A stretch of 64,000 nucleotides of DNA from Marsupella aquatica. Its lineage: Eukaryota; Plantae; Marchantiophyta. Location: positions 16,119,375-16,183,374 of the forward strand of contig OZ316897.1 of the NCBI GenBank assembly GCA_973895155.1, in the 5' to 3' direction. The notes beneath the pieces are model-generated. The model ran no database searches. It was not told the origin of the DNA and saw nothing but the letters and a program-made list of their open reading frames with translations. Both the position numbers and the translations under genes were made by a program. Numbering within the stretch: position 1 is the first letter of the stretch; the number at the start of each line of letters is the position of its first letter. Positions 2,900 to 38,581 of this stretch are shown piece after piece.

Positions 2900-3117
2900 A
2901 TCCTCTCTCCCATCCCAGATGAAGTTTAGAGGTTAAGGTTTATCGTCATAACCCCTAAAACCTATACTTTCATCTCTAAATGGGATGGGATCTGATGCCC
3001 ACCAAGGAGAACTGTTGCGTGCTTGAGATTGTAAGGTTTATCCATCCTTTCCCATTAGAGGCAAAGTTTAGGGATTTGCATTTATCATCCATAAACCTTA
3101 AACTATGGGATGAGATC
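2900..3117 (+). repeat. Host dispersed repeat (TTATCATCCATAAACCCTAAA...GGGATGGGATCTGATGCC...GGAGAACTGTTGCGTGCTTGA), left part, interrupted by the retroelement
   Basis: An intact unit lies at 2925-3030. The interrupted unit continues at 12981 (GATCTAATGCC...GGAGAACTCTTGCATGCTTGAAATTG). More copies occur at about 13380-13440 and 13855-14145. Confidence 0.7.
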
Positions 3118-3447
3118 TGTCACACCATTCTGAGTAGTGTAGTAGTATATCGTGCTATTAGAGTATGTACGTTTGGTATGAGTGCTATTGGAGCCGATAA
3201 GGTTCTGTCATGTTTGTGTGAGAGGGTACTTCTCACTTGTGAGGCATTGAAAGGTCATCTTTCAATGTTGAGCCTTGGAGAGAGAGGAGCTTGAGTGTGG
3301 CTATGGTGGCTGTGAGCTCCGCTTGTGTAACGTGGATTCCTTGAGTAGTGCAAGGTGCGTTGGCTTGACATACGTGTGTGATCGGATCGGTGCGGGATCG
3401 ATGGGGTATTGTTGACCGAGATCGTTGTGCCGATTGTATGGAGATTA
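3118..3447 (+). repeat. Split direct repeat A1 (330 bp)
   Basis: Matches 12514-12843 with 3 substitutions seen by eye. Confidence 0.95.
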
Positions 3448-3458
3448 CATTGAAAGAT
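3448..3458 (+). promoter_or_regulatory. Putative self-priming primer-binding site (CATTGAAAGAT)
   Basis: Begins on the first base after repeat A1. It is the exact reverse complement of ATCTTTCAATG at 3257-3267 inside A. No tRNA-type TGG PBS is present at the boundary. Confidence 0.65.
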
Positions 3459-3717
3459 CACATTCAAAATCTGTTGTACGGACTGTGCGGACAGAAGTTC
3501 GATTGATTGAGTTGTCGACGGTTCGTGGTAGCTCGGATCGTGTGTTGTTATCGAACAGATTGTTGGTATCTTGACCTGTATCGTTGTTGTCCGATCGGCC
3601 TGCTTCCCGATCGATGTACAGATCTGTGATTGGTGACAGGTTTTGAGTTGGAGGTCGATTGATGATTCATGGAGGAAAGCGAATGTTGAGTAGATGTTGG
3701 ACAGTGGAAGTCGATCC

Positions 3718-4290
3718 GTGAGGCTTCAGATCCGATTGCCAGCTACTGTGAGGCTTCAGATTTGATTGTCGGCTACTGTGGGGCTTCAGATCTGATTGCC
3801 GGCTATTGTTGGACGATGTTGGCAAGGCGCAGGTGAAGCGACGGCTTTTTTCCTGAAGGAACGGAGCTGCCAATGCCCCGTGCGACGGTATCATCGTTTC
3901 AGTGAAAGAAACGAGGGTCAAGGGTGTTGAATCAAGTTGCTGCCAATTCTGTGGAAGGGCTGCGTTTTTCATGAAGAAAATCGACAATTTTCGGGAGCTT
4001 TCTGTGAAGAAAGTACTCGTTTTTGGGGTTAGGTGTGAGGCGCACGAGGTCACCCATCCCGAAAGTGCTCGCGCGAGGCAACGCGTGAGGTCACCCATCC
4101 CGAAAGTGCTCCCAACCGCGAGCGAGAAGTCACCCATCGCAAGCGCAGGCAGGCACGAGGTCGAGGTCACCCATCCCGGGGCTATTCCGGGCCGTGAGCG
4201 CGAGGGGAGGCACAAGGTCGAGCGCGAGGAGGTCACCCATCCCGGGGCTATTCCCAGCCGCGAGCGCTTAACTGGCAAGTTCTCATCCCA
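3718..4290 (+). repeat. Tandem and clustered repeats in the retroelement 5' leader
   Basis: A 30-bp unit GTGAGGCTTCAGATCCGATTGCCAGCTACT occurs 3 times (3718-3807). GAGGTCACCCATCC-like motifs occur 5-6 times (about 4046-4290). Confidence 0.8.
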
Positions 4291-4801
4291 CCTTGTGTAC
4301 ACACAAGCTTTGACAACTTGTTGTTTAGATTCAAGCGCCAGTGGGCTTTATACACTTCTCGGTTTGTTTAGAGGCCTATTCTAGGCCAAATCAGAGGCTG
4401 TTTGAGGGTTTTTGATACTTCTGAGTCCATCTAGACTCACAGATTGAACTAATTTTGCCTTGGTTCTCATCTACAACATTGGAGTGCCATTGTGAAGCCT
4501 ATTATGAAGGCTCTTCCTTGAACCTTATGCACATTGTCATATTGATTTGCATTTGCTTTTGTGTGGAGAGTTGAATGGTATCCATTCTTGTTTCTGGATC
4601 CTCTTCACACATGTTTCCTGTTTATGCGCCATGTTAGTTTCGTGTGGGCGCTTGATTCCATAGGAGTGATCCGGGTTTGCAACTGGACATTCTAGTGTGC
4701 TGTGTATTTCTCTCTTGGTGATGTTGGAGTGATGCCCAACACACCATGGTGAGTGCTTGTGGTGCTGATAGGGATAGATTGCCCTTAGGGTTAGCACATA
4801 G

Positions 4802-7300
4802 ATTAGGTTAAAGTTGGTCACCACGGATTCTTCTGGTGCTGCTGGATTACCCGATGGACGACGGACCGGTTTCACTCGGAGTGGGGCACAGTTTCGGCCA
4901 GCGGCATTGTTAGCAATCAGTAGTGCAGCTTCAGACAATGATTCTGATGAGGACTCAGTGACCAGTTCTCCTCATCATCAGGTGGTTGCACCTTTGTTGT
5001 GGGATATGGACGAGATGTACGGGGCTACAAAGGGCCCACGACGATACTCTGGTGCAGTTGGCACAATTGATCTGGATGACTTCATCCAGGAGTTTGATAC
5101 GTGGTGCGATATGTAGACATTGCGTAATGTCACATTGTTTACCCCTTTCATGGCATGGAAGGGATTATTCCAGCATTTGGAGGGGCCACCCATGGATGAC
5201 TACCATGAGTTTCGGAAGGCTCATTTGGTTGAGATTGAGGCATGGAGGCAGCATTGGTCGCCTAATTACGTGTCCATCACCTATGGCACTAGTGCGGCTA
5301 CCCAACCAATTGCCACAACTGCTGCTTCTTCTAGCAGCACTAGCCAGAGTGGCACACCATCCACCAGCAGCACTCCAGCAGCATCCACCACTACTCCTGC
5401 CGGTGTGATTGTGACAGGAACTGGAGTTGCGCCAGCATTTAATCCTGTGGTGGAATTCTTTGAGGTACTGAAGCAGAACTATCAGGGTGTGAGAACTGAT
5501 AAGTTGAAGGGTCTTCAGGAGTTCCAACGCAAGACTGGAGAGAGCCTACGTGAGGCATACACACGTATGCGCAGATTGATCACTGTCACCAAGGGAGTGA
5601 CAGAGGCTCAGGCAGTCCAATTTTGGTATGCAATTCTGGACAGAGAATTGCGACGCAGAGTGAGAGATGTCACTCTGCTTAGGGATGCAGATCCCACATT
5701 AGCAGTTGTTTTCACCCTTTCTGAGCGCATTGAGCTCAATATGGTGAATGAGAAGGTGGTGACTTTCGGATTTGCCAAGGAAGCACCAAAGGCTGCATCT
5801 ACATCCACACCACAGCCTACTGCACGGAAGAGCCAGAGGGAGAAGCCTACTGCACGAGAGTCTACCAGCCAGAGACCTGTGCCCTCTTATGCTGGACAGC
5901 AGTCAGGATGTTGGACCTGTGGTGGGGATCATGCACAGAGATATTGTCCAGATCATAGAGGATCAGGGGGAGCATCAGCGCCTGATCAGCGACAGTGTGA
6001 TCACTGTGGAGCTCCTGGACACACCAAGGATAGGTGTTTCTCACTCCACCCTGAGTTACGGAGAGGAGGATCCCATACACATGATCAGGGAAGAGGAGGA
6101 GGAGGTAGAGGTGGTGGACGTGGTCGTGGCATGCCACATGCAGGGAGACAGGGAGGTGACGCTGCCCCTGCTGTAACCATAGATCCAAAGGATGCTAAGA
6201 TTGCTCAATTGGAGCAACAACTAGCTGTCATGGCTAGTTCCCAGGTGAGACCTAATTTTGGTGATGGGGCATCTACATCCTATGGACCTTCCACATCCCA
6301 TGGTCCTTCCACATCTTATGGAGCTGATGGAGACCTTGCCACCATGGGATTCATGTGTGGCACTGCACATATTGATGCATCAGCAGCTTTGACACGTGGG
6401 GCAGCCAAAGCTCTTGAGCCCCGAGGAGCAGTAGTGGAGTTAGATCCACAAAGGGGGGATGCACGTCGGCAGACAAAGCTTCCTCAGTCTTTTACATTGT
6501 CAGAGACAGTTCAGACTGCCTCTATGAACCCGGTTCGGACAAACCCTGATGTGGGTAAGTTGGCAGAATCAGGTAGTGATGCAGCAGGGATGATAGGTAC
6601 CTTGCTGGGGGCGGCTACTGCCATAGTACGCACTCCATTATTTTCAGCGACAAACATGCTGAACTTGGGAGTTGGTCCTCCAGAAGTGTTCAGATTGGCA
6701 GCTACACTCTGTGAGGACACTCCAGTGGTTGCTTCCCATGCAGAAGCAACTTGCAGTGTTGATGCAGTGAAGACCATGCCACCTACTGCTACTAGTGAGA
6801 CATGGCATGCAGCAGCAGCGAGGTTGGTGGATTTACCAGCACGCCCTGCATTTGAGAGGACTAGGTTTAAACCTAGTGTTGTGTCATTGGATAATCGGAG
6901 TGGTATCTTCCGATTAGTTGGGCCTTCTGGAGCAGTATACCAGCCAGAGAGAGTGTTACTGGATACTGGTGCTCAGCCCTTGATGTTGGGGAAGTCTGCC
7001 ATACGTGGATTGGGATTGCGTCCAGAGGATTTGGAGGATTGTCCCTTTCCCATTCAGACTTCATTGGGGGGACCTACACCTACACAGCATATCACCAGGA
7101 GACCACTTGATTTGAGGATTCAGGAAGGTCATACCACAGATAGATCACAGATACAGGCGCGAGCTATTCTGACTAAGGCAGAGTCATATGATGTGTTGGT
7201 GGGATGTACAGTGCTCTACCCCATGGGATTTATTCTTGATTTTTGGGAGGAATCAGTGTCATATAGACCTGATTGGCAGTCAAGAGATGCTCGATTTAGC
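4802..7300 (+). pseudogene. Retroelement Gag (two zinc knuckles) and aspartic protease
   Basis: ORFs 4814-5116 and 5120-8251 are in the same frame, separated by a TAG at 5114-5116. Knuckles are CWTCGGDHAQRYC (about 5909) and CDHCGAPGHTKDRC (about 5996), followed by an RGG-rich linker. Protease motif VLLDTGAQ at about 6953-6976. Confidence 0.85.
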
Positions 7301-7668
7301 AAATTGCCAGTGAGATTTAGTGGACCTATGGGAGGCCCTAAATCCACACCATTATCTTTGGCAGCATTCAGTGGTGTAATTGCTGGACCTGATGATTTGA
7401 TTGAGGGTAATGCGCATGCAGCCGATGTTCCACCATTGGAGGAGTCTCATGAGGAGCACATCATGCGAGGATTACCTGTTGGCAATGTTATGCCACCAGT
7501 GTGGGGCATTGCACAAGCCTTGCCACAGGCAGCAGCACGATTGGTACATGATGCATGGCGTCATGCTTTTACACCACAGTCAGGAGCAGAGCAGTCTCTT
7601 GCAGATGGACCTGTGACTCTTTCACCATTGGATACCACTCCTATTGCTTGGCAGTATCCACCGGAGGG

Positions 7669-8570
7669 TATTTGTTTGTTGGATCTTTTTGGTGGGATTA
7701 GCACTGGATTGGCTGCTGTTCTTCAGGCAGGAATTCCTATGCGTCGTTATTTGTATGTGGAGACAGATGAGACAACACGGAGGGTCTCATTGCGACATGT
7801 GGCTATGTTGGTGGATAGATATCCACAGTTGCTGCCAGTGGATGCTGTTCGTGGTTATCAGCATGCACTACCTACTGATATTTCATTGTTGGGGGCGGAT
7901 CATCTACATCGTGTTGGCCCCATTGATTTGGTGATTGCTGGTTGGCCATGTCAGGGCCAATCTAGAGCTGGCATTGGGCATGGACTTCATGATCCACGCT
8001 CTGCATTGTTTTGGGAGATGTTACGGGTGCTGCGTCACCTCCAGCTACATCAGACACAGTCTCCAGCATACATTTTGGAGAATGTGCCATTGTTAGGTGA
8101 TGATCGTAGTCGGATTGTTGCCAGTGTTCACCAGGTGAGGTCTTGGATTGGACCTGCTGTGTTATTGGATGCTGCACGTGTGGGTTCTCGTGCACATCGT
8201 CCACGCTTATGGTGGACTAATTCCGCGCTCACCAGCCTTAGTGGTGGATGATATTTTGGATCCAGGGCGTCGTGCACAGGGTGTGACCCAACCTGATAGA
8301 CCTCCATTGGCAATGGTCAATGCAGTTGGGTGCCCACGTTGTGCATTACCCACTCTTGTAAGCCACTCTGCTTCATATGCATTCAGAGCAGGTGGCCCTG
8401 GACTTGTATGGACACAGCTCTCCAGCAGTTAGTGGAGCCTACTGCTGATGAGAGAGAGCGTGCTATGGGATTTTTGACTGGCACCACTGCAGTTGTCTCT
8501 GTGTCAGAGGGTTTGCGGCGCCAGGTTCTTGGTCAAGCAATGGATTTGAATTGTTTGACTTGGATTATCA
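7669..8570 (+). pseudogene. C5 cytosine DNA methyltransferase domain embedded in the retroelement polyprotein (two frameshifts)
   Basis: Motif I LLDLFGGIS, motif II YLYVETD, catalytic motif IV IAGWPCQG (about 7934-7957), motif VI YILENV (about 8069-8086) and motif VIII AHRPRLWW. After frameshifts at about 8225 and 8412 come motif IX ERERAMGF and motif X RRQVLGQAM. Confidence 0.9.
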
Positions 8571-9384
8571 GCTTGGGAGTAGCTGAACAGTTGCGGATGC
8601 GCTCTGCCGGAATTACTGATTGTCCCTTGGTGAGCTTGCGGTCCACTAAGACAGTATTGACCACAGCTGGGGGCGAGCAGACAGTCCATGGACCTATGAC
8701 AGGATTGGCGGCTGGACAGATTGTTGAGCAGGAAGGGACTGCTCAATCTACTACTAAATAGCAATCATCGGCTATCTCTTCTACCCTACAAAGAGATATT
8801 AGGGATTTGGTGGAGAGTTGGGAACCACAGCTTGGCCCTAAGTTAACAGGGGAGGAGAGACGTCGTATGCATCGATTCCTGAAGAGTTATTGGAATTGTT
8901 TTGCATTCAGCATGAAGGATTTGGGGACATTGAAGGGCCCTGGTATTCAGATTGAATTGGCTAGTGATGCGCCAATCTTTCGTAGACCATACCGTTATAG
9001 TGACATGGAGAGAGCTCTGATTCAAAGCAGAACTCAAGATTTGTTGGAGGCTGGATTGGTGGAGATTTCATATGGGGAGTATGCATCTGCCACAGTGATG
9101 CCAGCCAAGAAAGATGTGCATGGCAATTACACAGATAGGCGCATGTGTGGTGATTACAGACCTATTAATCGCCAGACAAAATCTGATCGATATGCCATGC
9201 CCACACCTGAGGAGATCTTTGATGCTGTGGGGCATGCAAAGGTTTTCAGTTCATTGGATCTGAGGGCAGGATACCATCAGCTTCCAATTAGGCATGCTGA
9301 CAGGTCCAAGACAGTTCTGGGGGATTGATTCTTATGGCAAAGATCGTTTGTATCAATGGTTATTCTTACCATTTGGGTTGAAGA

Positions 9385-9690
9385 CCCGGGGTCCTCACTT
9401 CTTTTCTTCCGACCCATCACGCGCGAATAAGTATAGGGTTTTTTTATTGGGTTTAATGAAATACTTTTAAATTTTTGTTGAAGAACATTAGTGTTATTTT
9501 AATCCAATTTTGAGAATTATAAGAATCATAGGGTTTTTTAAAATCAAATATGGGAACATTCTTGGAATATTCTATTAAGTTAGGGGTTAAAAAATTCCTA
9601 AAAAAAACTTTATTGACTTAACTTTTAGGGTGTTTATTCTCCCAAAACTTCGAGCGTGATATGGGACACCCCTTGGATTGAGGCCCCCGA
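9385..9690. mobile_element. Non-autonomous DNA transposon (MITE-like, 306 bp) inserted into the RT domain
   Basis: 9-bp TSD GGTTGAAGA at 9376-9384 and 9691-9699. Imperfect TIRs CCGGGGTCCTCA / TGAGGCCCCCGA flank an AT-rich core. Removing it restores PFGLKNAP. Confidence 0.85.
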
Positions 9691-12059
9691 GGTTGAAGAA
9701 TGCACCAGCTGAGTTCCAGAGAGTCATGGATCGAATCCTTGTAGGTTTGGATTTTGTCAGATGTTATATTGATGATATTTTGGTCTATTCTTCTACTGTG
9801 GAAGAACATCAGCAGCACTTGCAGACTGTGTTGGAGAGATTGAGAGCACATGGGTTGAAGCTCCATCCTAGCAAGTGTAAGTTCTTCCAAGACCAGATTG
9901 AGTATTTGGGCCACACCATATACCCAGGGGGATTGGGTGTACAGCAGACTAAAGTGGAGGTCATTACACAGATTCCTTGTCCTACTGATGTGAGTAGAGT
10001 TCGTGCATTCTTGGGATTGGCGAGCTACTACAGGAGGTATGTTAAAGGATTTAGCCAGCTTGCTAAACCTTTGACCATACTCACTAAGTTGGATCAGGAA
10101 TGGATTTCGGGTGATGACCAGGAGCATGCCTTTCAGGAGTTGAAGCAAAGGTTGGCATCATCCCCTATTTTGAGAAGACCCATTTCAGGCAGACCATTTC
10201 AGCTACACACTGATTGGAGTGGAGTAGGACTTGGAGCAGTGCTGACTCAGAAGGATGATGAGGGGAATGAGTTTGTTGTGGCTTATGCCAGTAGATCAAA
10301 CAATTCAGCAGAGGCTAAGTATAGCTCTTATGAGGGAGAGTGTTTGGCAGCAGTGTGGGCTGTTGCACACTTTCGTTGCTACTTGTTTGGTAACCCCTTC
10401 ACCTTGATCACTGATCATCAGCCTCTTAAGTGGTTAATGGAGTCTGACAAGCTTACAGGGAAGCTTGCACGATGGGCATTGTTGTTACAGGAGTATGATT
10501 TCCAGGTGGTGCATAGGCCTGGAAAAGTGAACTTGGATGCAGATGGATTAAGCCGCAATCCATGTACCAGTCAGCAGGATGAGACTGGAGCCAGATGGCA
10601 TGATGAGTCAGATAAGGAGATGGTGCCAGGATGGCATGCATCTGCCTTTCTTTGTTGGGTGCCAGCATACAGTGGATCTGTGGACTCTACTTCATTGGAT
10701 GGAGTGGGTGATGAGTCTTCAGATGTGGATGTTGGTGAGGTAACTTCTGGACAACAAGATATTCACAATGATGTGAGAGTGTTGGAATATCTGCGCAATA
10801 GTTCTATTGTTGGCAGTGTTGATGCCAAGGACCGTGACAGGGTTCTACAGAGAGCCAAGAGGTTTCGATGGGAGGGAAACCATCTTTTGAGAGTACTGCA
10901 TGATGGTAGGATGTTGGTGGTACCAAAACCATCACAACGAGTACATTTGGTGCGACATGCGCACGAGGAGTTGGGTCACTTTGGTGTGAAGCGCACTTAC
11001 AGCTTGCTGCAGATGTAGTATTGGTGGCGTGGTATGCACACTCATGTCCAGCAGTTGATAGCTAAGTGTGTGGTATGTGACAGAGTGAGAGCATCATTTA
11101 ATGCTCCCACTCCCCAGTTGCACCCGTTACCGATCATGGGTTTGGGATATCGTTGGAGTTTGGATTTTGCTGGTCCATTACCTCTTACCCAACGTCATAA
11201 TCGGTATGTTTTGGTCATGGTGGAGCACTTCTCCAAGTGGATTGAGCTAGTGGCGTTGCCAGATAAAGCCAGTGGAGGAGTTGCTGCTACATTTTTGGAT
11301 TGTGTACTCAGTCATTTTGGAGCACCAACTGAGGTGTTGACTGATCAGGGAACTGAGTTCCGTGGAGAGTTTGAGAGTTTGTGTGAACAAGCTCTGATTG
11401 ATCATCGCACTACCTCTCGTGATCATCCTGAGGCAGATGGATTAGCTGAGAGAGTTGTGCAAACTGTGAAGAGAGGATTGCGTAAGTATGGCTTGCAGGT
11501 TGGTCATCTGGGAGATTGGGATCTCCAGCTACCTTGGTTAGCTATGGGCTACCATTTCAGTCGGCAAGCATCACTTGCATCCTTCTCACCCTACTTTTTG
11601 CTCTATGGTAGAGAGCCAGATTTGCCAGCAGCTATTCGTCGTCATGCTGCACCAGTTGTGAACTTGGATGATCCTGATGTTTGGGTCAAGGTGTGTTCAG
11701 AGAGAGCACGGGTATTTCAGAGAGTGATGCCCATGGCTTTTGACAACCTTGCCATTGCCCAACATCGTGATACTTTGAGGTATGCCACTATTCGTGGAGG
11801 AGGTTACCGTGCAAGCATTCGACGATTTCATCCTGGTGATTATGTTTATTTGCAGCAGACAGCACCCACGACACTTGATGTGACCGCAGGCCGGACAATC
11901 TTACGTGTGCGTGAAGTGTTGCCTTCTGGTGTCCTGATGTTGGAGGGACGCGATGGTATGGTTTGGAAGGATCATGTGCGCAACTGTGCACCATGTCACC
12001 TTCCTAACATTGATGGTACAGTAGATCCAAGCTTGGCACATGTTCGTGCTGGCTTGAAA

Positions 12060-12197
12060 TGTATGTTGTGTGGATCTGCTCAGGGAGCAGCTACTATGTT
12101 GATTTGTGATAAGTGTTCTAGAGGATGGCACATGTCATGTTTGACACCACCATTGCAGGTGATTCCTAGTGGATCATGGTTGTGTCCTCAGTGTCGG
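12060..12197 (+). other. PHD finger (C4HC3) fused to the integrase C-terminus
   Basis: CMLC...MLICDKC...WHMSCL.PPL..IP.G.WLCPQC is a canonical PHD pattern. Confidence 0.9.
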
Positions 12198-12364
12198 TGA
12201 AGCCGACTAGTTATCATTTGTGTTCTCTTGGCAGATATGGATTGCAGGTAGGTGATCGATGGGGCTCACTTGCACCCGGCCTCCTGATCTTCACACCTAA
12301 AAAGGTGTATATCAACCTTGTAGAACTCATGGCTAGCTAGAGTTAGGGGACCTTACTCCCAGCT

Positions 12365-12374
12365 AGGGGGGCGA
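12365..12374 (+). promoter_or_regulatory. Putative polypurine tract (plus-strand primer)
   Basis: AGGGGGGCGA directly abuts the first base of repeat B1 (12375). Confidence 0.6.
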
Positions 12375-12980
12375 TTGTGGGTTTTGGACATGTGTGGACA
12401 TGAGTTCCACTTGTATTCCATTCTCTTGTATTTGTGATGTGGCAGTGTGACTATGTCTGGATGTATGTGACAAGCGATGTATGTTGTGTAGCGATATGTA
12501 TGCGCACGACAACTGTCACACCATTCTGAGTAGTGTAGTAGTATATCGTGCTATTAGAGTATGTATGTTTGGTATGAGTGCTATTGGAGCCGATAAGGTT
12601 CTGTCAGGTTTGTGTGAGAGGGTACTTCTCACTTGTGAGGCATTGAAAGGTCATCTTTCAATGTTGAGCCTTGGAGAGAGAGGAGCTTGAGTGTGGCTAT
12701 GGTGGCTGTGAGCTCCGCTTGTGTAACATGGATTCCTTGAGTAGTGCAAGGTGCGTTGGCTTGACATACGTGTGTGATCGGATCGGTGCGGGATCGATGG
12801 GGTATTGTTGACCGAGATCGTTGTGCCGATTGTATGGAGATTATTGTGGGTTTTGGACATGTGTGGACATGAGTTCCACTTGTATTCCATTCTCTTGTAT
12901 TTGTGATGTGGCAGTGTGACTATGTCTGGATGTATGTGACAAATGATGTATGTTGTGTAGCGATATGTATGCGCACGACA
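12375..12980 (+). repeat. Right-end repeat block B1 (12375-12511), AC, A2 (12514-12843), B2 (12844-12980)
   Basis: B1 and B2 are 137 bp each with 2 differences, and A2 matches A1. The B1/A2 junction reads GACA-AC-TGTC. Confidence 0.95.
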
Positions 12981-14569
12981 GATCTAATGCCAACCCTTTG
13001 AGGAGAACTCTTGCATGCTTGAAATTGCACTGTTTGTGCATCCGAAAACCCCTCCTAAAATTTGTTTGCTTGTTTGTATGTACATGGTCATGAGTCATTA
13101 CCCCGTGATGAAGCCACAAAACCCATATGCCAGCCTGGCCTAGGGATTCTGAAATTTGAATGAAAAATACACTAAGGTGCAAGTGGCACACAATGGCAGA
13201 TGAGACTTTTGCCCTATAAAACTGAAGTGAATCGTACAAAAGTGCACTCAGACTTTACACTTGGTAACTCATCTCCACTTGGGGATAATGGCTAAACCCC
13301 CTTTGGTTCAGCACCCTTTGGGATTACATCCCATTATCCCCTCTTGGGATGGGTCCTACACTTTGCCATTAGGGACGATGTCTAGGGTTTGGCTTTATCA
13401 TCCATAAACCCTAAAATCATGGGATGGGGTCTGAGAGCCAACTCACATGTGTGGGTCCTCAGAAATGGCCCTTACCTGCAGCAAAATATTAGGGGAAAAG
13501 TAAATCTTGGATCACAAATGGACCTTCTCAAGTGCAACATGGCATGTGCTCAAGCAGTTTGTGTTCCTCATTGTCCCCTACAAGCAGAGGTAATAAAGCC
13601 ACAGCAAAGCTTCCAGTGCCACACTTTTGCAACATGTCACTTTCTCCCTTTTGTTTGACAAGAAAGTTTGAGGTCAGTTTGAGGTCGGCACCTCAAGGGT
13701 CATAAGATTTCCGGCCCTTGCCCGTGGAAGTGCCAGTTTTATGGCATCAGGCCTGGCACACAAGGGGGTAACAGCATATTTCTCAGTCATTTGTATGCTG
13801 CCATCAGTCAGGTTTATGGCCGATGACATACAAGTTGGCTCTGATCACCTTTGGAGGAAAACTGTTACGTGCTTGAAATTGCTGGGTTTACTCATCCTTT
13901 CCCATTGGAAAGGGTTAAGGATTAGGGTTTATCATCCAGAAACCCTAAAACCTGTGTTCCATCTCAGAATCCATTGGGATCGGATGCCAATGTTCGAGGA
14001 CGACTGTTGCGTGCTTGAAATTGTGATAGATTTGAAGAGTGATGACGAGAAGTTCAGGATAATGTATATCGATCAGGGCACTACGTTCTGGGATGAAATC
14101 GGATGTCAACCTTCCAGGAGGACAGCTGCTTGCTTGAAATTGTGGCAGATTGTCCTCCCAACCGAACAGAAAAGAAAAGATGAAGTTGGTCACGAGGAGT
14201 GCGCGAAACTGTTTACGAAGGTGTGAAGAACTGCTGGCCAGACTCCGATTTATCACTCCCAGCAAATGTTAAAAATTCATTCCCACCCACTGGAGACATT
14301 GTACATTTGGATTACGTACATGCCATGACAATGAAATAGAATCCGTGCCGTCAGGAAGTAAAATTGTTCACAACCATCAGAATCGGGCCAAAGCTTTGGC
14401 AACAAGAATTAATAGGATCTCCAGCGTTTACATCCACGGTGGACAAAATCTACATTACATTGGAAAGGGGTTTGCAAGTACAAGGGCAAAGGTGCTCCAA
14501 GCTCTCATCTCTCCTAAGGAGCATCTGCAGATAAGATCGTCATTGCATCCTAGTCGAGTACGTTGTCCA

Positions 14570-21039: not shown

Positions 21040-21740
21040 CATAACATTTGATATCTTTGGCAAAACTACTTCTTTTTTGTTAATGACAATTTTTTACTTG
21101 ACGACAATTGTTTACTTGATGACAACTTTTTAATTGACGACATGTTTGGCAAAATGATTTCTTTTTTCTTAAACAACATAGTTTTACTTGACAACGTCTT
21201 TCACATAACTTTATCTTTGCAAAATAACTTCATTGTTCTTAATGACATCTTTTTACTTCACGACATCTTTCACATAACGACATCTTGGGCGACACGACAT
21301 CTTTTGTTCAATGCACGGGTATTGAACTATTTTGTATTTAACAACATTGTTATACTTAACAAAACCTTTGGCATAGCGACATCATTGGCAATACGACCTC
21401 TATTTCTTTCACAACCTCTTGGCCGAGATGACATCTTTTGTTCTCAACGACTTCTTGGCCGACACGACATCTTTTGTTCTCATCGACATCTTGGCCAACA
21501 TGACATCTTTTGTTCTCAACAACATCTTGAGCGACACAACACCTTTCTTCTCAACGACCTCTTGGCGACACGACATTTTTTGTTCTCAACAACCTCTTGG
21601 CTGACATGACATCTTTTGTTCTCAACCCTGTTCTCAACGACATCTTAGGCAACACATCTTTCTTCTCAACGACCTCTTGGCCAACACAACCTCTTTTGTT
21701 CTCAACGACATCTTGACCAACACGACATCTTTTGTGCAAC
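21040..21740. repeat. Degenerate tandem minisatellite (about 33-bp unit CTTGGCCGACACGACATCTTTTGTTCTCAACGA)
   Basis: About 10 recognisable units at 21410-21735, with more decayed TTTTACTTGACGAC units upstream. Confidence 0.8.
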
Positions 21741-24700
21741 GCACGGGTATTGAGCTCGTCTTAATATATAATCTTGATCTATAGCTACTGTACACTTCAG
21801 GCCCTACAATATGGAGTGAAACTTTTAGACCTTGACTCTGGGGGAGGGGGCAGGTGAGTCCCTAAAAATGGCACAACAACATTGAATGTTGTAGTCCCTT
21901 TTATGGTAAAAAAAGAGCACATAGGTTAGTTCTTACCCAAGATTTGAGCTCAAACTGTACAAAGTACAAAAGAATTGAGTCTGAGATTTTTGGGACCAGT
22001 TTGGCCACCTTCACTACTCCTTGAGGGTGGCTTTACAAGATCTAGGGCACTTTGTGAATAGTTTTCACCACTTTGTGTTCAAGGATAGACTCCAGGCTAA
22101 ATATCTTTTGAAATGAAGTTCAATGAATGCCAAACACCTTGAATCAAAAACAAAAAAAACAAAAAAAACAAAAAACAAAAGTCGGAGCCAAAGTTTGGAA
22201 ATATTTGGAGCTGCTATAATGGTGAATGCACATTTCAGATTTTGTCTTATTCAGATTTTTGTGTCATGTATTTTCATTTCAATCTGCCTTAACAAGGGGT
22301 AGCCTTTGTATTCTATACATTTTTAATTAATTTTTAGACCCCTTTAGTTTTAGGTATTCTAGAGTGTTTTGAACTTATTTTGGCAGCCCCCTTTCACAGT
22401 ATGTGTTTTCTTAGAGATGAAACCAAAGGCTCCACCACCACGAGTGAGAGAAATGATGCTGGAGAACATGAATACATAGCCTCTTAAGTTCTCCTCATGT
22501 TTTTCTTTCCTAGGTTTATGGTTTTTATTGAAAGGAGTGTCATTCATAAGGCACCCTGAGTTAAGTACACACATCTAGCATGGTTTGACTGTACCTTTTC
22601 TTGGTCACTGTGCTTTTCTTGGCAGACACTTTACTTATATAACAGCACTTCTATGCTCTCATATTTTATTTATTTTCAGATCACTACAAGACAAAAAAAA
22701 TAAAGCATGTTCCAGGATGAGCATGCTATATCTGGAGGTGACAAATTCTAGTCAAAACAAGCACTTCACAAAGAAGTTTCCTTTGGCCCACTACTTGCCA
22801 TGTAGAATCAGCAGACATCATACCTGAATGGGCCCCAAGGTTTTGTGAAGCCAAAATGCAGCTGTTTTCACTTATCATATGGTCCAGATTTGATCTCAAA
22901 TGGAATAAACAAAGCAATGGTCCTCAACTATCTTGTAAAGCCATCAGAAACCCAGGTCACCACATCCAACAATACTTTGTAAATCTCGGATGTAATGATG
23001 TGGATGAGATGAGTTTAGGGCACCTCTGATCTCCACTACAGCTCTCAATGGCATACCTACCCTACTTGGTTCCAAACTTGAAACAAACACTCAGTTAATG
23101 CCTTCAAACCAAAACAACGGAGAAGTGTCTTCTCTCAATTTCTAGGAATGAAGAAAGGAAGAAATCCTTGTTGGTGGTGCCTAAGCTGTTGAAGGAAAAC
23201 CCTAGGCAGGCTTGGAGGTGGTTGACCGCCTCCTCTCAACTTCCATGAAGAAAGGAAGAAATGTGGACAAGTGGTTGCCCAAGATGTTGAAAGAAAACCC
23301 TAAACAGGCTGTATTCTATTAGCCTCAAATTGGTCTACCCACAAATCTTCGAAGAAAACATCAGAGGTAATCTTCAGTTGGCCGTTTGTCATCGAGGGCA
23401 GCCCTCAAGTTTTGGAGTTGAGATTGGATGGCCAGCCCCATCATACATTCTCAAGCCATGACAGAGTAAGGTCACATTTGTGGGCTAATGGCATATGGCC
23501 CCAACCAAGCTCAGAGGTGGGTGCCCAACATGCTGGGGCGTTAATTTAGTGCACTAGCCCCGACTACACGTTCTTTGAACGTGAATAGCGGGGAGGACAA
23601 TAAAAATTTCACCAAAATATATTCCTTATTCACATATTTTGAAGGTTAATGAAATGATAAAAAAGTTATCATGCATATCATCATTTTAATAATCAGACAT
23701 AACATATCATAGTACTCTTTTCTATGCACATTCCTAGTTTTTCTATCCTACATCCCACTTATGCACATATAATATGGTGGGCCATAGAGATCAGTTTTTA
23801 ATATAAATAGAAATCATAACAAAAAGCACTCATGATTATCATTTGACATGACATACATCATAGACATCAATTTTCTCATCATTCCACATGAGCCATGGAG
23901 TTATTGTCTAGAGATTTCACTCTAGAAGCGTAGGCCCCAACTTTAGCTTGTAGTTGCAGATTTATAAGTAAGATAACTAACAATTTATGCACATTTTGGG
24001 TACAATGTGCGATCCTATCCAAACATAAATAAACATATTATCCAATAATATTGAGCAAAAGTTTTTTACGGACCCCACTAGAGGTCCCTTCCAAAATTCC
24101 TGGCACCACAGCGTGTCACGTCAACAACAACCGCAACAAACAGGAACGAATTGGTCTCCACAATGAAAATATGCCCAAATTCGTGTTTGCGACAGGATTT
24201 TGGTAAAACTGGGGACGCCATGCCGTAAAAATTCATGTAAACTTGTTTTACAATTAACCATATTATTTACCTTTAGATAACAAATTATTGAAGTTAAGAT
24301 AGACAATAACTGTTTTTTCAACCCCTAAATAACTGAATGCACAACATTAAGTAATAACAATAACCATTAAGTAATAATTAAAAAGAGAAAAGTAACAAAA
24401 TTAAATGTGTAATTGAAAGTAAGCACTTGTCACTAGAAACAGTTAAGTAATTAACGTCCACTACAATCCATCCCGCCCGCAATCCAAACTGTAACGAGCG
24501 CTCCTCCGCGCCACAACCTCTACACGAATTCTCGTTGTTGATTATGATGGTGATGGTGAGGTGAATGTGTGCACACGCAATGTTGAGAGAAACGAGAAGG
24601 TGAGAAAGAAGCTGCCCGATCGAAGACTCGATAACAAAGAAACCAGAAAAGAGATCATTTCATAAGGGACCAAAAGCAGGAAAAACAACGATCGCAAACA

Positions 24701-26805: not shown

Positions 26806-28847
26806 AGACAGTCAGTCGAGCCATCCTTCCAGTGACCCTGGGAATAGTTCTTGGATCCGCTTTAGACACGAAAACATGTTTAAGACAACATATTACAGTG
26901 CCGGACCCAAAGCAAAGAATTGGTGGTCGTTATCCCATTTCAATAATATCATGAAATGTATCATTCGGTGAATTATCCATAGTTTTCCAGGAACCTTCCG
27001 ATCCAATCTGAATCATCAAAAAGCTTTGTCGCAATGGAGTGGTGCTTATCCTAATTGTCTACATTTGTCCAGGGACTAGATGTCTGTACATATAAAAACT
27101 GTGCAAGATTACAAATAATTTAGTAGCTAAGAAATTCGGCGACAAGAAGCATCTTTTGTCTAATTGTCAGTTCAATGGACTTATTGGATGCAAGTGCGGT
27201 TTGAAAATGACTTGTGCTATCTCTTTCGGGTGTATCCAGGTTAATCGATACTGCGAAGAGGCTTGCATAAGAGATGAATTTTGAAAGTGGAGAATTGTAG
27301 CAAACAACAGTGTCGCGAAGACAAACTACGAGGACTTAAGCTCGAAGCAAACTGTCGTCTATGTCGAGCAGAAGCGTGCGTGTGTTCGGCCGCTTGGCGA
27401 TGGACGTGTGCATTTGAAAAAGGACGTTACGATTGTGGATCCGTAAGTTGCTCGTGTTCTTTGTCGTTGCGTCTGGTTTTATTATCTGTTTTCGCCTTAG
27501 TTTGGAGGCTTTTTTACAAAAAGTGCATCTAAGAATTCTATACCACGAGTCTGAAGCGCGAAAGAATGTTCGCATAGATCTACAGTGCTGCCCGGTGCGT
27601 GTATTGATTTATCTCGTTTCAGGACCTCAACTGCGTTCCCAAAGTGAATTACCAAGTTCTTAGACTTTATAATGTGCAGGGTGCATATTGATAGATAAAC
27701 CTACCCCAAGTTTTTGATATCGTTTGTAATCGTGTCCTAGGGAGATTGTTTACTTGTTGGAAATGCCAAAAACTTGCGCCTAGTACAGCCAAAAACCACA
27801 GCTGTGACATGGCGCCTGCCAGTCGCTAGCCGCAACAACCGCTGAAAAAGCATCTTAACTTAAGAATGTTAAGTCACACACTTTGTATATATTGAGAGTA
27901 CAATATCTGAGTCTCAGTTTTATACCCAGATACCCGTACAGTGTGCAAGGAACACCTCAATTAGTGTGACTTCATGTGACCTATAATTAGAGAGACACCT
28001 TAAATAAAGTGAGTCACGCTACCTATACTTAGAGCCTATAATTAGACTGAAATTTATAATCAGATGTATTTTATAGGCTAAGCTATTTTACTAAAAATTT
28101 GCAAAGCTACTTAAGGCCTATGGTCTAGAGTTGGCAACTCCCAATAAAGACAAAACTGATAATGAGTCTTTAATAATCAAAGAACTTAAAAAATGAAGAT
28201 AAACAAAAAAAACAGTATGGGGGAGGGTGGACAAAGAACTAGATGGGCAAAGATGAACCCAAATTAAAGCATACTTAGAATTGTTTCCATGCAAGCTTTT
28301 TCTTTCTTCGTATCTCTACTTTCAAGGAATCTTGGGTAAGAGGCCTAGTTAGTGTAACTTACTAGAGTTGGACACTTTATCTAATGGAACGTTTGTTCCC
28401 GCGTTTGTTTGGTACTCACACAAGTCTTCTTGCAGAAAGGGCATGGTGTGTCGGCCGACTTACTTAATGGTGTTTGGGAAGTTGGACGTGAGTTTTCAAG
28501 TTACCTAGAGAAGAGAAGCTCCGAATAAGTTAAACAGTGCTTCTACATACAGGTTTGTTGTCTCCTAACTTTCAAAAAAATAGTATACTTAGAGCCTATA
28601 ACTAGACTGAAATTTATAATTAGGTTGACACCTGAAATAAACTTAAGTGAGTCACAATTTTATGTGAGATGTATTTTATAGGCTAAGCTATCTTACTAAA
28701 AATTTGCAAAGCTACTTAAGGCCTATGGTCTAGAGTTGGCAACTCCCAATAAAGACAAAACTGATAATGAGTCTTTAATAATCACAAAACTTAAAAAATG
28801 AAGATAAACAAAAAAAAACAGTATGGGGGAGGGTGGACAAAGAACTA

Positions 28848-31800
28848 CACTGCTCACCGCCATTAGTCTTATGTCACAAATAGTGTTATACTCAATTAAT
28901 GTTAGTAAGTCTAAATCAAGTGAAGGGGTGTTTTGACAAGAAAATAAGAGTAATTGTGGATCTTTTGTAACTGTAAATAGTATTTGTGATTTACACTAGG
29001 TTATGGTAAAAGTGGGCAGGTGCAGTTGACATGTCAGTCTGAAAGCTTGCTGACAACAACGTGGACCAATAAAGCCACATGCATTGGACAACTAGTGTGA
29101 TGGTTGCATGCATCACTAGCTCTCTACGTAATATTTTTCTTGGATTTTCCTCACTATACTGTAGTAAGATTCTACTCACAACATAAAATCTCATTGACTT
29201 TTGTTTGAGGCCATGCAAAAACGGGGCAAAGTTTTGAGTCGCTCCAAATTGTACAGTAGCTCTCTATCCTGACAATGAATTTTCTGTTGTAAAGCTTTGT
29301 CGTGACAAGTCCACATCGGCAACATTTGATTGCAATCCCCTTTGAGAACGCCTGAATTTTCTCAAAATTACAAATCTCATTGACTTTATTTGCTACCATG
29401 CAAAAACGGGGCAAAGCTACGGGGGAAATTTGAGCTCACAGTGCTCCGATCATTGATGTGATTCAAACATTGACAGATTGGAATGAATTGTGTGTCAATA
29501 TAAGGGGCTGAAAGATTTATAACTTGCACATTTCAAATCTGGGAGGTTCCCATACGTCTTGCTTGCTGATCAAATTATTGATTATTGCATGCCCCTTTGA
29601 GACTTGTACGTAGCTGAGAATCGAGTTGATCTTTTGATTGATCTGCAAAGACAATAGATAGAGAGTGTGCTTGTGTATTTTCAATGATTCACAGTTGGCT
29701 TGCTATCATCGAATTAGACCATTTCAAACAGCTGAGGCTGTTGTCAAGCTTTCTTGAGTATTTTTTGCATTTGCAAGAAAGAACCGTCTGCAGCTAAGCT
29801 GATCCACGAGGTGAGGTGAGTAGCTTTGGTTTGATTAAAGCTGAATCTTTAGTTTGCTTTCAACTTATTTTCAATCCATTCGATCAATCAAACATTGAGT
29901 TGAAGTGGAACTTGTGTTTGAGCAGCAATTTCTCAATCTTGTGAGCTTGCAGGTCCAGGTGCAGGTCAGGGTGTTCAAGTTAGTTCAAGCTATTGATCAC
30001 AGATAGGCTCGTATGGCTCTCCCCTTTTAAGTGCATGGAGACATGCAAGGCAGCCCTTGCCTCCGGTTCTGTCCACTGAAGAGGCTGAACATGGAACCGA
30101 AGAGCAGCAAGAAGAGTAGCAAGAGCAAGTCAACCAGCAACCACTATCGATTCAGGCTGAAAGATCTCGTACATTACAACATGTCTGCACTAAGGCCCAA
30201 CGAGTGAAGGTCATTAAGTGCAGGCTACAGTTCAATTTAGAGGAGGAGAGGAACGATTGATTGCCACTGATGCAATTAAACAATTTCCAAAGTGTTTTTG
30301 TTCTGCTAGTGCAACTGCAAACATTGTGAAGGCATCACGTTGGTGGAAGGAACGGGAAAGTATTCTGGAATCTTTCAAGGTAGACAAGATGTGTGTGAGC
30401 CGATCATTTCATGATGGGAGGAAACGGACAGAGTTGAAGGCGGGTCCAGGTAGGGGGAGGAAAGCAGCCGCTTGGACTACTTGGTTGTACCCTATCGTGA
30501 GAGATGAGTTTGAAAGATTAAGGTCTGCAGGCCTGAAATTCTCACCCAAGGTACTCCTTCTAGTTGCTAAAAATGCATTAGTGACAAACAATCATCCCAC
30601 TTTCTTTCCGCAAGCTATCTTGGATGATGATCCAAGACCTCTGACAGATAGAATAACCCCCAGGTGGGTCCAGCAATTCCAAGAGCGAAATAACATTGTC
30701 CATCGTTCTCAGACCGGTAAACTTATGGTTTCCCCTGCCAAGCAAGAGTTCATAGAGAGAAGAGTAGCTTTCCACATGGGATTTCTTGCACGTGGTTTTA
30801 GATCTGGAATCTTGGATGAGAATGACCAGGAGAATATGGATGAGACTCACTTTTGTGTCAATATGGACAACGGGAAGACGTTAGGTTTCAGAGGAGACGA
30901 AAATGTGAAATATGCAGATATTGTTAGTGGAGGAGTTGGAATTACCATGGTAGTAAAAGTCACAGGAGGGGTTCAAGGGAAAATTGGGACCCCTTTCATG
31001 ATTTTTCAGAATGATCATTGTTCTTATCCAATTAGGGGAGTTCCTGATAATGTGCCAGGTGTATGCTACCGCTCCACAACATCCTCGTTTATGACTTCAA
31101 AATGTCTGACAGAATATTACAAGGATGGGAGGGTCAATTGGGCAGATCCTAGTGGACATAGGAAAGTCCAATGGATGGATAACTACCCAGGGCACAAAAT
31201 TCTTCCGGATACCGAGACAGCGTTGGAGCACATTAACATGGAGGTGAGAAGATTCCCTGATAATGCTACTCACTTGGTACAACCCTGCGATAGCTTTGTA
31301 ATTTCAAAAATCAAAGATGCCTGGACACGAAGGTGGGAGGTGAAGAAAATGGAGCTGATCAGGGATAGTCAATGGCAGGGTGATGGAAGGCATGGTACAA
31401 GTGGTATGCTCATTAATCCAGGGAAATTTTTTTTCTTGCAATTGGCAGCTGACTCTGTATGTGATGTCAACAGGCAGGTTGACAAACATTACAGAATAAG
31501 TTATGCCAGAAAATCTATGATTAGAACTGGTCTCTCCTTAAATCTCAATGGGCTGTGGGAAGAGGAGCAACTTTCACCAGAATTACAGCAAGTCATTGAG
31601 AAATATCGGTGGAATTTTAACAGAGGGTTGCAAGGTCTGTTAGATATTGATCCACGATTGCCCCTAACAGAAATTCCTTTGAATGTTGGAGAACCCTCAG
31701 CTCAGGAAGACCTTGACAGTGATGAAGTTGATGAGCTTGACAGTGACGAAAATGAGGACTCCCTGCAATTGCCTCACGAACCTGAACCACTGGAGGCGCT

Positions 31801-32622
31801 TGAGAATGGAGAGCTAGTAGAGATTGAACCAATAGCACCGGTAGAGAACTCTGCAGATGCTGAGTTTTGGGAATACCTTTCCTCCCAGTATGGTTTAGAC
31901 GAAAATGCTTCAAATTGACATGTTCAGTTTTGAATATTTTGTAATTGCAGTTTACCCGGGCCTTGACCAATTTTGTAATTGATATTTCATTCAAAGGAAA
32001 AAATTATTTGTTAATTGCATTTTGAAAGATTCTGCGCACAGCTTCAAATTGACATGTTGTTCAGTTTTGAATATTTTGTAATTGCAGTTTACCCGGGCCT
32101 TGACCAATTTTGTAATTGATAGTTATTCAAAAGAAAATATTATTTGTTAATTGCAGTTTGAAAGATTCTGCACACATCGCTCACAGCGCTTTTGCAATTG
32201 ATTCTTAAATTGATTCACATAATAATTACTTTGATAGTTAGTGACATCATCGCTGGTGAGATCAACAGTTTCCAAGACTTTTTGAGCATTTTGGGGAAGA
32301 AAACAAATATGCTTTTGGCAGATCTATGAGGACAGGTGTCTGTTTTGAGTGCATAAGTTTTGAGTGCAATGGGGATTCACAAATACAGTACAGTAGTGTT
32401 TTTCCATACCCCTAAATTTTAATTTCATATCATGATGATGTTTTGCAAACACTGTGAAGTAATCTTACCAAAACACCTGAATTAGCATTAGCCACATTCT
32501 ATTTAATGCGCATGTAAATAGTATCACTCCAAAATTAACATTGGTAAGGTTAAATCTCGATAGGTCCAAATCTTGAGCACTCACCCAAATAGAATTAGTA
32601 AGACTAATCACGGTGAAGAGTG
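28848..32622 (+). mobile_element. Tc1/mariner-superfamily pogo-type DNA transposon (3775 bp)
   Basis: TIRs are CACTGCTCACCGCCATTAGTCTTA and the reverse complement CACTCTTCACCGTGATTAGTCTTA (20/24 match). TA TSD at 28846-28847 and 32623-32624. The empty site AGAAC-TA-GATGGG is visible in the paralogous copy at about 28235-28247. Confidence 0.92.
30050..31918 (+). pseudogene. pogo-type DDD transposase (CENP-B-like HTH plus DDE_1 domain), damaged at the N-terminus
   Basis: ORF 30218-31918 contains WVQQFQERNNI (HTH), NMDETHF, WMDNYPGH and VQPCD (DD36D by manual count), plus an acidic tail. The upstream part is in another frame and contains a TAG. Confidence 0.85.
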
Positions 32623-33439
32623 TAGATGGGCAAAGATGAACCCAAATTAAAGCATTCTTAGAATTGTTTCCGTCAAGGTTTTTCTTTCTTCACTTTATCT
32701 AATGGAAAGTTTGTTTGGTACTCACACAAGTCTTCTTGCAGAAAGGGCATGGTGTGTCGGCCGACTTACTTAATGGTGTTCGGGAAGTTGGACGTGAGTT
32801 TTCAAGTTACCTAGAGAAGAGAAGCTCCGGATAAGTTAAACAACGCTTCTACATACAGGTGTGCTGTCTCCTGACTTCAAGTTCTTCCTGCTTTTTGTGT
32901 GGTCCCTAACGTGATTATTGAACCCTAAACTCCTTGCTATTTTCTAATATAACTTTTGGTCATTTAATTTGGCATTTACTCTGTTGCGGTCCTTTTAAGA
33001 CGGTTTAGTGTGCTTCGAATCCTGACCAACTCCAAATCATAGCCATGTCTGAATTGCTTTTTGTCATTACAATTTTGAATTGCAACAAAGATCCTCATTT
33101 CGTAAAGAACATGAAGAAAATAGTTTTAATATATACATATATATATACAAATATATCTTTATATTGACTGAGTATTAAACCTATATAATTCATTAGATTA
33201 GATCGATTACATGGTTCTATAGTTGCCTGTACCAATTCACAAACTAAGGCGGTAGGCCGCTTGCTTACGATAGCTTCCAAAGATCTCTGAGACATTACCC
33301 AAATTTTCTTCCAGACAAATTGTCTTGGACAAATTTCTTGATTCGGCTAACATGGTAGCTTTTGCCCACACCCATTTACTTGCGGGTTTACTTGGGTGTC
33401 TCCAACACCACCTAAACCGTATTATCGTGTGAATGATGC

Positions 33440-37500: not shown

Positions 37501-38581
37501 TGACGTGTTCATCATAGACGAGGCGAGCATGCTGACACCCAAACTGTTGCGTTGCGTCTCCACAAGACTACACGAGACACTACAAGACGAGGACCGCTCA
37601 TCCGACCCGTTCCAAAATAAGACGGTCATCCTGGTCGGAGACATGTGCCAATTGCCTCCGGTTTGCACCCATCACACCAACGACATATGCAGGTCGTGCC
37701 ACCTCTCGTCGTCGCCATATTTTGAGACCATGTGGAAATTTCACCTTAGCACTGTGCTCAGACAGAGCACAGACCGGGAGTTCATGGAGTTCCTTAACAA
37801 CATCCGCACAGGCCTCCCTACCCAAGAATCGATCGATGAGTGTCTGGGACGATGTTACGTGTCCAAACAAGAAGCCCATGATTTCATCGACGCCTCGACG
37901 ACCGTGATATGCACACATAGAGAAACAGTCGACAACTACAACGAACGGGCATTACAGAGATATTTTCCATGCCAAGAGATCATGCCCGTCCCAATACTCA
38001 CCAACGCCCCTTCAGACGAATCCACCCGACCTTGGATACAAGATCCCTCCTTCCACACACTGACGAACGTTGCAATCGGATGCAAGGTGATTCTCACACA
38101 CAACATCGACCTCTCCAAGCAGGCCGCGAACGGCAACGGAGGAATCGTGGAGAAAATCACTACAGAAGCTGAAGGCAAAATGTTGATTTTTGTGAGAATG
38201 TCTTCCAACCACTGCCTCGTAAAGATCAACCGCACGGTTCACGAGAACAAGTTCATCTCGGGACAGCAAACCCATCGGAAATCCACTTTCCCTCTCATGC
38301 TCGGATACGCCATAACAGGTCACAAGAGCCAAGGTTGCACACTAGCGGGCAAGGTCGTGCTAGAAATAAACAGTGCATTCACACCGGGATTGGTGTACGT
38401 TATGTTGAGTAGGGTCACAAATAGAGCATTCATGCGCATTGTTGGAGATCTTACGCCGCCGGACTTCAAAGTGTTCCACTTACAAATTCGTCGTGTTCAA
38501 CAAGCAGATGTCGACCACCAAAGGCAACAAGGCAGCGAAGGCATCACAACAACAACGAGAAACGATGACAGGCGCAAATAG
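34583..38581 (+). mobile_element. Helitron-like RepHel gene (HUH Rep plus PIF1-type SF1 helicase), Helentron/Helitron2 type, intronless, one premature stop
   Basis: ORFs 34583-35209 and 35216-38581 are in frame across a TAG. N-terminal CxxC pairs. Rep motifs are PHFFLMLTCDE, YELQGRASLHNH (about 35969-36004) and YLLKYAIK. Helicase motifs are GNPGSGKT (about 37283), IIDEASM, GDMCQLPPV, YAITGHKSQG and YVMLSRV. Element ends were not defined. Confidence 0.9.

Follow-up and report, generated by a model that had tools for sequence, protein, structure and literature searches.

A Candidate Self-Priming Site, with a Predicted Primer-Masking Hairpin, in a Split-Repeat Ty3/Gypsy Element Carrying a Dnmt3-Like Domain

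The 12 nucleotides at positions 3447–3458 of the window (the whole 64,000-nucleotide stretch analyzed here) are probably the primer-binding site (PBS) of a self-priming Ty3/gypsy retrotransposon with split repeats. What was observed are sequences, positions, covariation between primer and PBS, target-site duplications (TSDs), and repeat junctions; the explanation that joins them, from transcription start to integration, we consider probable as a whole, its parts being weighed separately below.

A Ty3/Gypsy Element with Split Repeats

The host element is a 9.86-kb Ty3/gypsy retrotransposon (3118–12980), present in the window as a broken copy. Its domains follow the order Gag, protease (PR), Dnmt3-like methyltransferase, reverse transcriptase (RT), RNase H (RH), integrase (IN), and PHD finger, and its repeats are split as A1-body-polypurine tract (PPT)-B1-(2 bases)-A2-B2, that is, A-body-B-A-B. 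The features are as follows.

3114–3117, plus strand: left 4-bp TSD, GATC, repeated at 12981–12984; a 5-bp version mismatches.
3118–3447, plus strand: repeat A1, beginning TGTC, the left element end; promoter, R, and U5 would lie inside it.
3245–3267, plus strand: hairpin, a predicted primer mask; its 3′ arm is the putative primer, and 9 nt of the PBS recur in its 5′ arm.
3257–3268, plus strand: putative self-primer and predicted transcript 5′ end; 12 nt ending in GT, exact complement of 3447–3458.
3447–3458, plus strand: putative PBS, adjoining A1; its position is set by the end of the A1/A2 match, and it covaries with the primer.
5006–8677, plus strand: Gag-protease-Dnmt3-like methyltransferase region (PF00145; tblastn with Marchantia proteins), with frameshifts and stops at 5114 and 8249.
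8762–10500, plus strand: reverse transcriptase and RNase H (RVT_1, RT_RNaseH), with a 306-bp insertion at 9385–9690.
10929–12200, plus strand: DDE integrase with a C-terminal PHD finger (Pfam Integrase_H2C2, rve, PHD); the D-D-E motifs are visible in the alignment.
12361–12373, plus strand: polypurine tract, directly 5′ of B1, recognized from sequence.
12374–12511, plus strand: repeat B1, ending GACA; 2 differences from B2 over 138 nt.
12508–12517, no strand: B-A junction palindrome GACA-2 nt-TGTC, spacer AC in the window; candidate integrase attachment site.
12514–12843, plus strand: repeat A2, with a second copy of primer and hairpin at 12641–12664.
12843–12980, plus strand: repeat B2, the right element end, GACA; the A2-B2 joint brings together the PBS-defined end and the PPT-defined start.
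12981–12984, plus strand: right TSD, GATC, matching 3114–3117.

The element has the PR-RT-RH-IN order with a DDE integrase, the TG...CA ends, a TSD within the 4–5 bp range, and the PPT of Ty3/gypsy elements; the feature it lacks is a pair of whole long terminal repeats (LTRs) at its two ends, the repeats being split instead. The solved structures nearest to the methyltransferase are those of DNMT3A, and the best PDB match of the RT is Ty3 RT. The protease, which has no Pfam match in the window element, is assigned from a motif in the translation and from PF13650 on relatives. A G-run occupies the PPT position in all 38 relative loci listed. A1 and A2 differ at 3 positions over 330 nt, and upstream of 3118, contigs from four sequencing runs diverge from the window into varied flanking sequence (agreement 0.47–0.7).

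Decay of this copy is evident from the stops at 5114, 8249, 8759, and 11016 (the last interrupting the integrase zinc finger), the frameshifts, and the RT insertion. The latter is 306 bp long and AT-rich, with imperfect terminal inverted repeats and an 8–9 bp target duplication, and resembles a hAT or MULE MITE; no further copy was found in the window or in the best 80 of 458 relative loci. The element itself sits inside a degenerate host repeat (2930–3117 and 12981–14150) with several copies of 50–100 nt and telomere-like words, and the host flanks join across the TSD.

The Primer/PBS Match in the Window

The preliminary description had claimed that the 11 nt directly after A1 (3448–3458) are perfectly complementary to 3257–3267, or 12 nt with the pair 3447/3268, and this complementarity is exact. 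Beyond 3257, where C3256 opposes C3459, perfect pairing gives way to patchy pairing (16 of 18 positions up to 3251/3464). The 11-nt primer proposed there thus stands as regards its pairing; as regards its length, 12 nt is more likely than 11. PMC6317226 recognizes self-primers by an LTR stretch of 10 nt or more that is complementary to bases 0–5 after the LTR, and the window element has 12 nt in this position.

None of 1000 dinucleotide shuffles of A1 gave a 12-nt match at offsets 0–6 from the repeat end; among 9072 control positions in the window, 12 nt was reached at 3 and 11 nt at 8. A looser test, which takes the longest inverted repeat anywhere in 900 nt, reached 12 nt in 3 of 300 unanchored shuffles, and for this reason the match of the window copy alone is suggestive, short of decisive. 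Among the variants listed from sequencing-run contigs, none falls inside 3257–3268 or 3447–3458; the same holds in a second comparison, which drops differences near stretch ends and also misses the known variants 3248 and 3256. Summed read depth over A is far above the depth after the PBS, such a depth sum being no copy number.

Seven Families, Each with Its Own Primer/PBS Pair

Relatives were taken from the best 80 of 458 confirmed loci (L numbers) of one metagenome scan, about 65 of them distinct; the viral contigs scanned contained no usable related locus. These 80 loci include six further families, whose integrases are 51–77% identical to that of the window element, and the A repeats of the seven families have no blastn match to one another. 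Family 2 (L002, L018, L020, and others; 77% integrase identity) and family 3 (L033, L046, and others; 52%) both retain A1 and the bases that follow it, and the full A-body-B-A-B order is found in L020, L033, L046, and L047. The closest named proteins are those of Calypogeia and Marchantia (75–83%), followed by Sphagnum, Klebsormidium, Closterium, and Haematococcus, from which a bryophyte host appears likely. A Dnmt3-type domain lies between Gag and RT in 16 of the 17 relative loci tested by tblastn, and the RT is deleted in L021 and L022.

The bases directly after A1 are again complementary to a stretch inside A1, over 12 nt in L002 and 15 nt in both L033 and L046, and in three families the end of the repeat thus locates the PBS independently. 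Half of the 12 A1 copies tested, the window copy included, have an exact run of at least 10 nt; the other six have one or two mismatches in 12, or have lost the primer by deletion (L004), which we read as probable decay of old copies.

The remaining four families (L012, L025, L032, and L053) show the order PPT-B-A-PBS-leader after the integrase; the split layout is known from the whole-order loci, these four being known from B-A-PBS contigs alone. Such contigs (L012:8656–9038, for example) may represent a collapsed assembly, a one-LTR circle, or a tandem copy. Their primer and PBS were picked as the longest inverted repeat in up to 900 nt, which yielded 14–16 nt with arms about 170–235 nt apart, a result reached in 0 of 300 shuffles for each. 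Across all seven families the primer pairs with the PBS of its own family over 12–15 nt and with those of the others over at most 7 nt, own-family pairing in the last four holding by selection. The pairing is thus conserved with changed sequence, in line with the preliminary description. When anchored at their 3′ ends, the seven primers differ at 3–8 of 12 positions; six of the seven end in GT, facing a site that starts with AC, and six start with A after a pyrimidine.

A second element in L051 was left out of the seven families (its inverted repeats are of low complexity only, 20 of 300 shuffles), and L009 is without the primer/PBS region. In L053 (2280–2292), the B-end attachment word recurs at the A end ahead of the PBS, possibly as a remnant of an ordinary U5 end. 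In L023 (1166–1798), B-A is followed by an inverted partial A, a rearrangement or an assembly artifact.

Predicted Transcription Start

A plant start site is expected about 29–32 nt below the TATA box. All 12 selected copies of families 2 and 3 have a TATA box 29–32 nt upstream of the first A of the primer, a count made without L004, L021, and others carrying deletions or changed words, and L012 has one 29 nt upstream of the primer. By this spacing, the TATA boxes of three related families would independently place the start at the first base of the primer. None of the sequencing runs listed as containing this stretch is an RNA run, a result that bears neither way on expression. No TATA-like word lies near −30 of the primer in the window, L025, or L032, so position 3257 is a predicted start in the window by homology of position only; a start within a few bases of it is nevertheless likely in the family of the window element.

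A Hairpin over the Primer

As the preliminary description had noted, 3245–3267 form a 9-bp hairpin in which 3245–3253 pair with 3259–3267 around a 5-nt loop; two G.U pairs lengthen the stem to 3243–3269, and the stem of family 2 is closed in the same way. When the window RNA is folded from 3257, the primer:PBS pairing probability is 0.54, and it drops to 0.01–0.03 with 30–100 upstream bases. RNAs of the other six families folded from the first base of the primer give 0.81, 0.97, 0.76, 0.79, 0.97, and, in L053, 0.10. With 30–60 upstream bases, pairing falls to 0.00–0.04 in the window, family 2, L012, and L025, and in these read-through folds the primer is taken by the upstream arm, through a stem whose sequence differs in each of the four. 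The L012 mask weakens with 100 upstream bases (0.51). Family 3 and L032 have no masking hairpin and keep high primer:PBS values with upstream bases; L053 has none either. The hairpin is conserved in four families and dispensable in some. It would act as the preliminary description proposed, on the A2 copy of the primer at the RNA 3′ end as well.

On balance, we slightly favor the view that the hairpin was selected as a mask. The main competing view accepts self-priming and regards the hairpin as incidental or as acting at the DNA level, for example as a promoter element or a local inverted duplication of the PBS. It is the less probable of the two, yet far from negligible: three of the seven families (family 3, L032, and L053) have no hairpin, and in run X7 a T>C change at 3248, which disrupts one pair of the stem, is frequent (351 of 609 depth units), with no compensating change of the partner among the variants listed. 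Against it stand the retention of a primer-covering stem in four families with different sequences, the closure of both the window and family 2 stems by two G.U pairs, and the flip in folding, from 0.54–0.81 to 0.00–0.04, with 30–60 upstream bases. A second stem-loop is present at 3218–3236, just upstream of the hairpin, and family 2 also has an upstream stem, its TATA box lying between the two stems.

Integrated Ends and the B-A Junction Palindrome

Inserted copies begin with TGTC and end with GACA, and 8 of the 11 copies with both ends are flanked by an exact 4-bp TSD, never by one of 5 bp (the three misses are L041, L046, and L073). L018 and L003, two contigs of one insertion, provide a ninth 4-bp TSD. 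These ends are the two halves of the B-A junction palindrome, GACA-GC-TGTC, which is kept across all families. Its motif has 35 matches, of which 34 lie at B-A junctions and one is stray; 16 have the spacer GC, 8 AC, 7 GT, 2 AT, and 1 AA, and the stray match has CT. The variants are those expected from deamination of methylcytosine.

Because the PBS follows A and the PPT precedes B, reverse transcription defines B+A as the LTR, and B-A-body-B-A would be the expected product of ordinary synthesis. The PBS- and PPT-defined ends lack a conserved TG/CA (in family 3, A ends in CAAT and B starts with ATAC). The integrated ends thus seem to derive from the internal B-A palindrome rather than from the ends that PBS and PPT define. 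Retroviral integrases use CA-3′ ends with 2-nt 5′ overhangs, and cleavage of the palindrome after CA on both strands would leave precisely such ends.

With a 12-nt primer assumed, the window and family 2 (5 rows, 3 insertions) have a blunt A2-B2 joint. Among 15 A-B joints of family 3, nine are blunt, three are two nt short, one carries two PBS bases, and two are of other kinds, as expected if the ends were freshly joined, or the primer cut varied, in each cycle. After same-locus duplicates (L038, L059, and L074) were dropped, transversions between B1 and B2 amounted to 0.009 within an element and 0.024 across 13 elements. Each element's B1 and B2 have private indels and transversions in common, and B2 is thus likely to be recopied from B1 in each cycle. 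The two sets as wholes have no majority difference, and the B2 nearest to a given B1 is that of the same element in only 7 of the 13 elements (9 of 13 by transversions). Simple inheritance of the A2-B2 junction is disfavored by the joint variation and the shared private variants.

At about 20 distinct 3′ ends a complete B is followed by flank, versus 19–20 with B-A-B. Where the 5′ end is visible, the former are A-body-B copies. L002, L004, L022, L069, and L018/L003 are of this A-body-B kind, with no repeats and a perfect 4-bp TSD, and would be missed by LTR finders.

A Proposed Replication Cycle

These ends and joints can be accommodated as follows. The transcript would start at about 3257, and its first 12 bases would fold back onto 3447–3458, pair there, and, by analogy with the action of Tf1 RNase H, be cut off as primer; in longer RNA the hairpin would hide these bases. 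A minus strand synthesized from 3446 and a plus strand from the PPT would give a linear cDNA, B-A-body-B-A, whose ends would have to be joined, A-end to B-start, because the conserved TG/CA is missing there. The integrase would then act on the palindrome in the PBS-side LTR, cutting each strand after CA, and A-body-B-A-B would be inserted with a 4-bp TSD. This product alone should be able to replicate again, because its RNA would keep both the R repeat and the upstream A.

A circular or end-joined integration intermediate is the somewhat better-favored possibility. In its simple form, a symmetric 2-LTR circle, it predicts A-B-A-body-B equally often, and since B precedes A in 0 of 13 distinct 5′ ends of relatives, we reject this form. 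Because the mirror product is never seen, some asymmetry is needed, for example a jump of the plus strand from A-end to B-start; alternatively, A-body-B may arise later by B1 x B2 recombination.

Less probable, though still worth considering, is a self-primed element without any closed circle, whose integrase uses the internal palindromes on linear cDNA or on an intermediate of RT template jumping, the extra B being copied when plus-strand synthesis switches from the end of A to the start of B. Such a route accounts for both the missing A-B-A-body-B and the common A-body-B copies with TSD, and work on RT clamping has considered Tf1 RT (PMC3035444). On the other hand, A-body-B could also be formed after insertion by B1 x B2 recombination, with the TSD kept.

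A broader version of the end-joining cycle seems to us evenly balanced. It would apply to a bryophyte-wide lineage in which RT ends are uncoupled from integration ends: a self-priming 12-mer gated by the start site and guarded by the hairpin, joining of cDNA ends, an integrase that opens a palindrome inside the LTR, and an end-joined circle obligatory for every re-replicating copy. The split repeats of PAT and Ngaro might have arisen by such a route as well.

Source of the Primer

Priming by the element's own RNA, without tRNA, is very probable from the comparison of families. The alternative that a host tRNA, a tRNA half, or another small RNA serves as primer, the upstream complement being a structural or promoter feature, has a precedent in the half-tRNA priming of plant copia lineages (PMC6317226). 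A tRNA scan found no tRNA gene in the window with which the PBS could be compared. The alternative is nonetheless very improbable. The PBS starts with TGG in none of the seven families, and full-length tRNA priming therefore does not fit; moreover, seven cis-matched PBS sequences would need seven tRNA switches, each followed by a change in cis. There is also no Rfam match in 2900–5200.

That pairing and repeat order are accidents of one copy (chance, rearrangement, or misassembly) is hardly credible, for although unanchored shuffles reach 12 nt and the window copy is decayed, the full layout recurs in the four whole-order loci and is published for Klebsormidium nitens (PMC5890265), TSDs flank the permuted ends, and the pairing is found in six more families.

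Implications and Neighboring Features of the Window

In the sections of PMC6317226 drawn on here, self-priming in plants is predicted only for the Tcn1 and TAR lineages, and the split-repeat gypsy-Dnmt3 element adds a further candidate plant lineage, one with natural compensatory changes. The RNA switch proposed here, the hairpin, is not described for Tf1/Tf2 in the corresponding parts of PMC7175516, PMC4600332, and PMC5341516.

Circles are usually treated as dead ends for elements with an integrase; their role as integration precursors has been debated from retroviral work (PMC1180852, as far as drawn on here). In the present element, every copy able to regenerate its ends shows the permuted order expected from a re-cut circle. 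Since close relatives are annotated in Marchantia polymorpha, the start site, the primer, the circle, and integrase cleavage are testable in a model plant.

Elsewhere in the window are a Helitron Rep/PIF1 helicase frame of 1123 aa (35210–38581), a DDE_1 transposase frame (30218–31918) between 169-nt direct repeats of 96% identity (28403–32877), an uninterrupted, GC-richer NmrA-like frame (188–1243), a Kelch-repeat frame on the minus strand (49364–49930), and a degenerate 36-nt tandem array (21050–21770).

Comparison with Known Systems

In Tf1/Tf2, Tj1, and Tf1/sushi elements, and in plant Tcn1, 11–12 nt of the LTR are complementary to the adjoining PBS, which has no tRNA match (PMC7175516, PMC4600332, PMC5341516, PMC6317226). 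The window element resembles Tf1/Tf2/Tj1 in having 11–12 nt of LTR/PBS complementarity directly after the LTR and no TGG start. The label "Tf1-like" given in the preliminary description is therefore apt for the mode of working and does not extend to membership. The vast majority of chromoviruses bear a chromodomain on the integrase, whereas the window element has a PHD finger there and no Pfam match to a chromodomain; on the latter ground we provisionally keep it apart from Tf1/sushi. Tf1/sushi elements are ordinary LTR elements of the chromovirus branch, in contrast to the PHD finger, methyltransferase, split repeats, and upstream masking stem found here. In Tf2, the choice of start site decides whether the RNA can be copied, a nucleosome shifting the start downstream (same Tf1/Tf2 sources); control there is by a moved start, versus the hairpin proposed for the window element.

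Split direct repeats in the order A1-B1-A2-B2 are shared with PAT, TOC, Kangaroo, Ngaro, and Viper, which encode a tyrosine recombinase (PMC4157794). Unlike the PAT/Ngaro group, the window element combines a DDE integrase with TG/CA ends and a TSD of 4 bp, and no tyrosine recombinase was detected in the 13 element frames scanned against Pfam. An internal palindrome proposed as the integrase cut site that gives processed ends recalls foamy virus, whose integrase cleaves palindromic 2-LTR circle junctions (PMC1180852). There, however, the palindrome is the LTR-LTR junction and its cleavage restores the linear order, whereas here it would lie inside the RT-defined LTR and yield a permuted insert.

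The closest published element is KnitGypsy-Dnmt3 of K. nitens (de Mendoza et al. 2018, PMC5890265), with which the window element has in common the gypsy domains, a Dnmt3-type methyltransferase domain inside Pol, and the A-coding-B-A-B repeats, described as DIRS-like (the KnitGypsy layout is taken from a figure legend). Because KnitGypsy-Dnmt3 was published with both, the A-B-A-B layout and the methyltransferase were already known. The portions of the text and supplement text of that paper available to us contain nothing on priming, TSD, PHD, or a junction palindrome, and a 2026 preprint (bioRxiv 10.64898/2026.05.21.726589) mentions streptophyte Gypsy-DNMT3, in the part seen not its priming. 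The full-text literature searched, with Repbase reports and subscription journals outside its scope, gave no account of priming, TSD, or palindrome for the split-repeat gypsy-Dnmt3 lineage, and the name KnitGypsy appears in a single paper there. No K. nitens name occurs among the matches of the DNMT search; K. nitens integrase-PHD proteins are 53–55% identical to the window integrase. Unlike KnitGypsy-Dnmt3, the element described here resides in a land plant, and its closest named relatives are those of liverworts.
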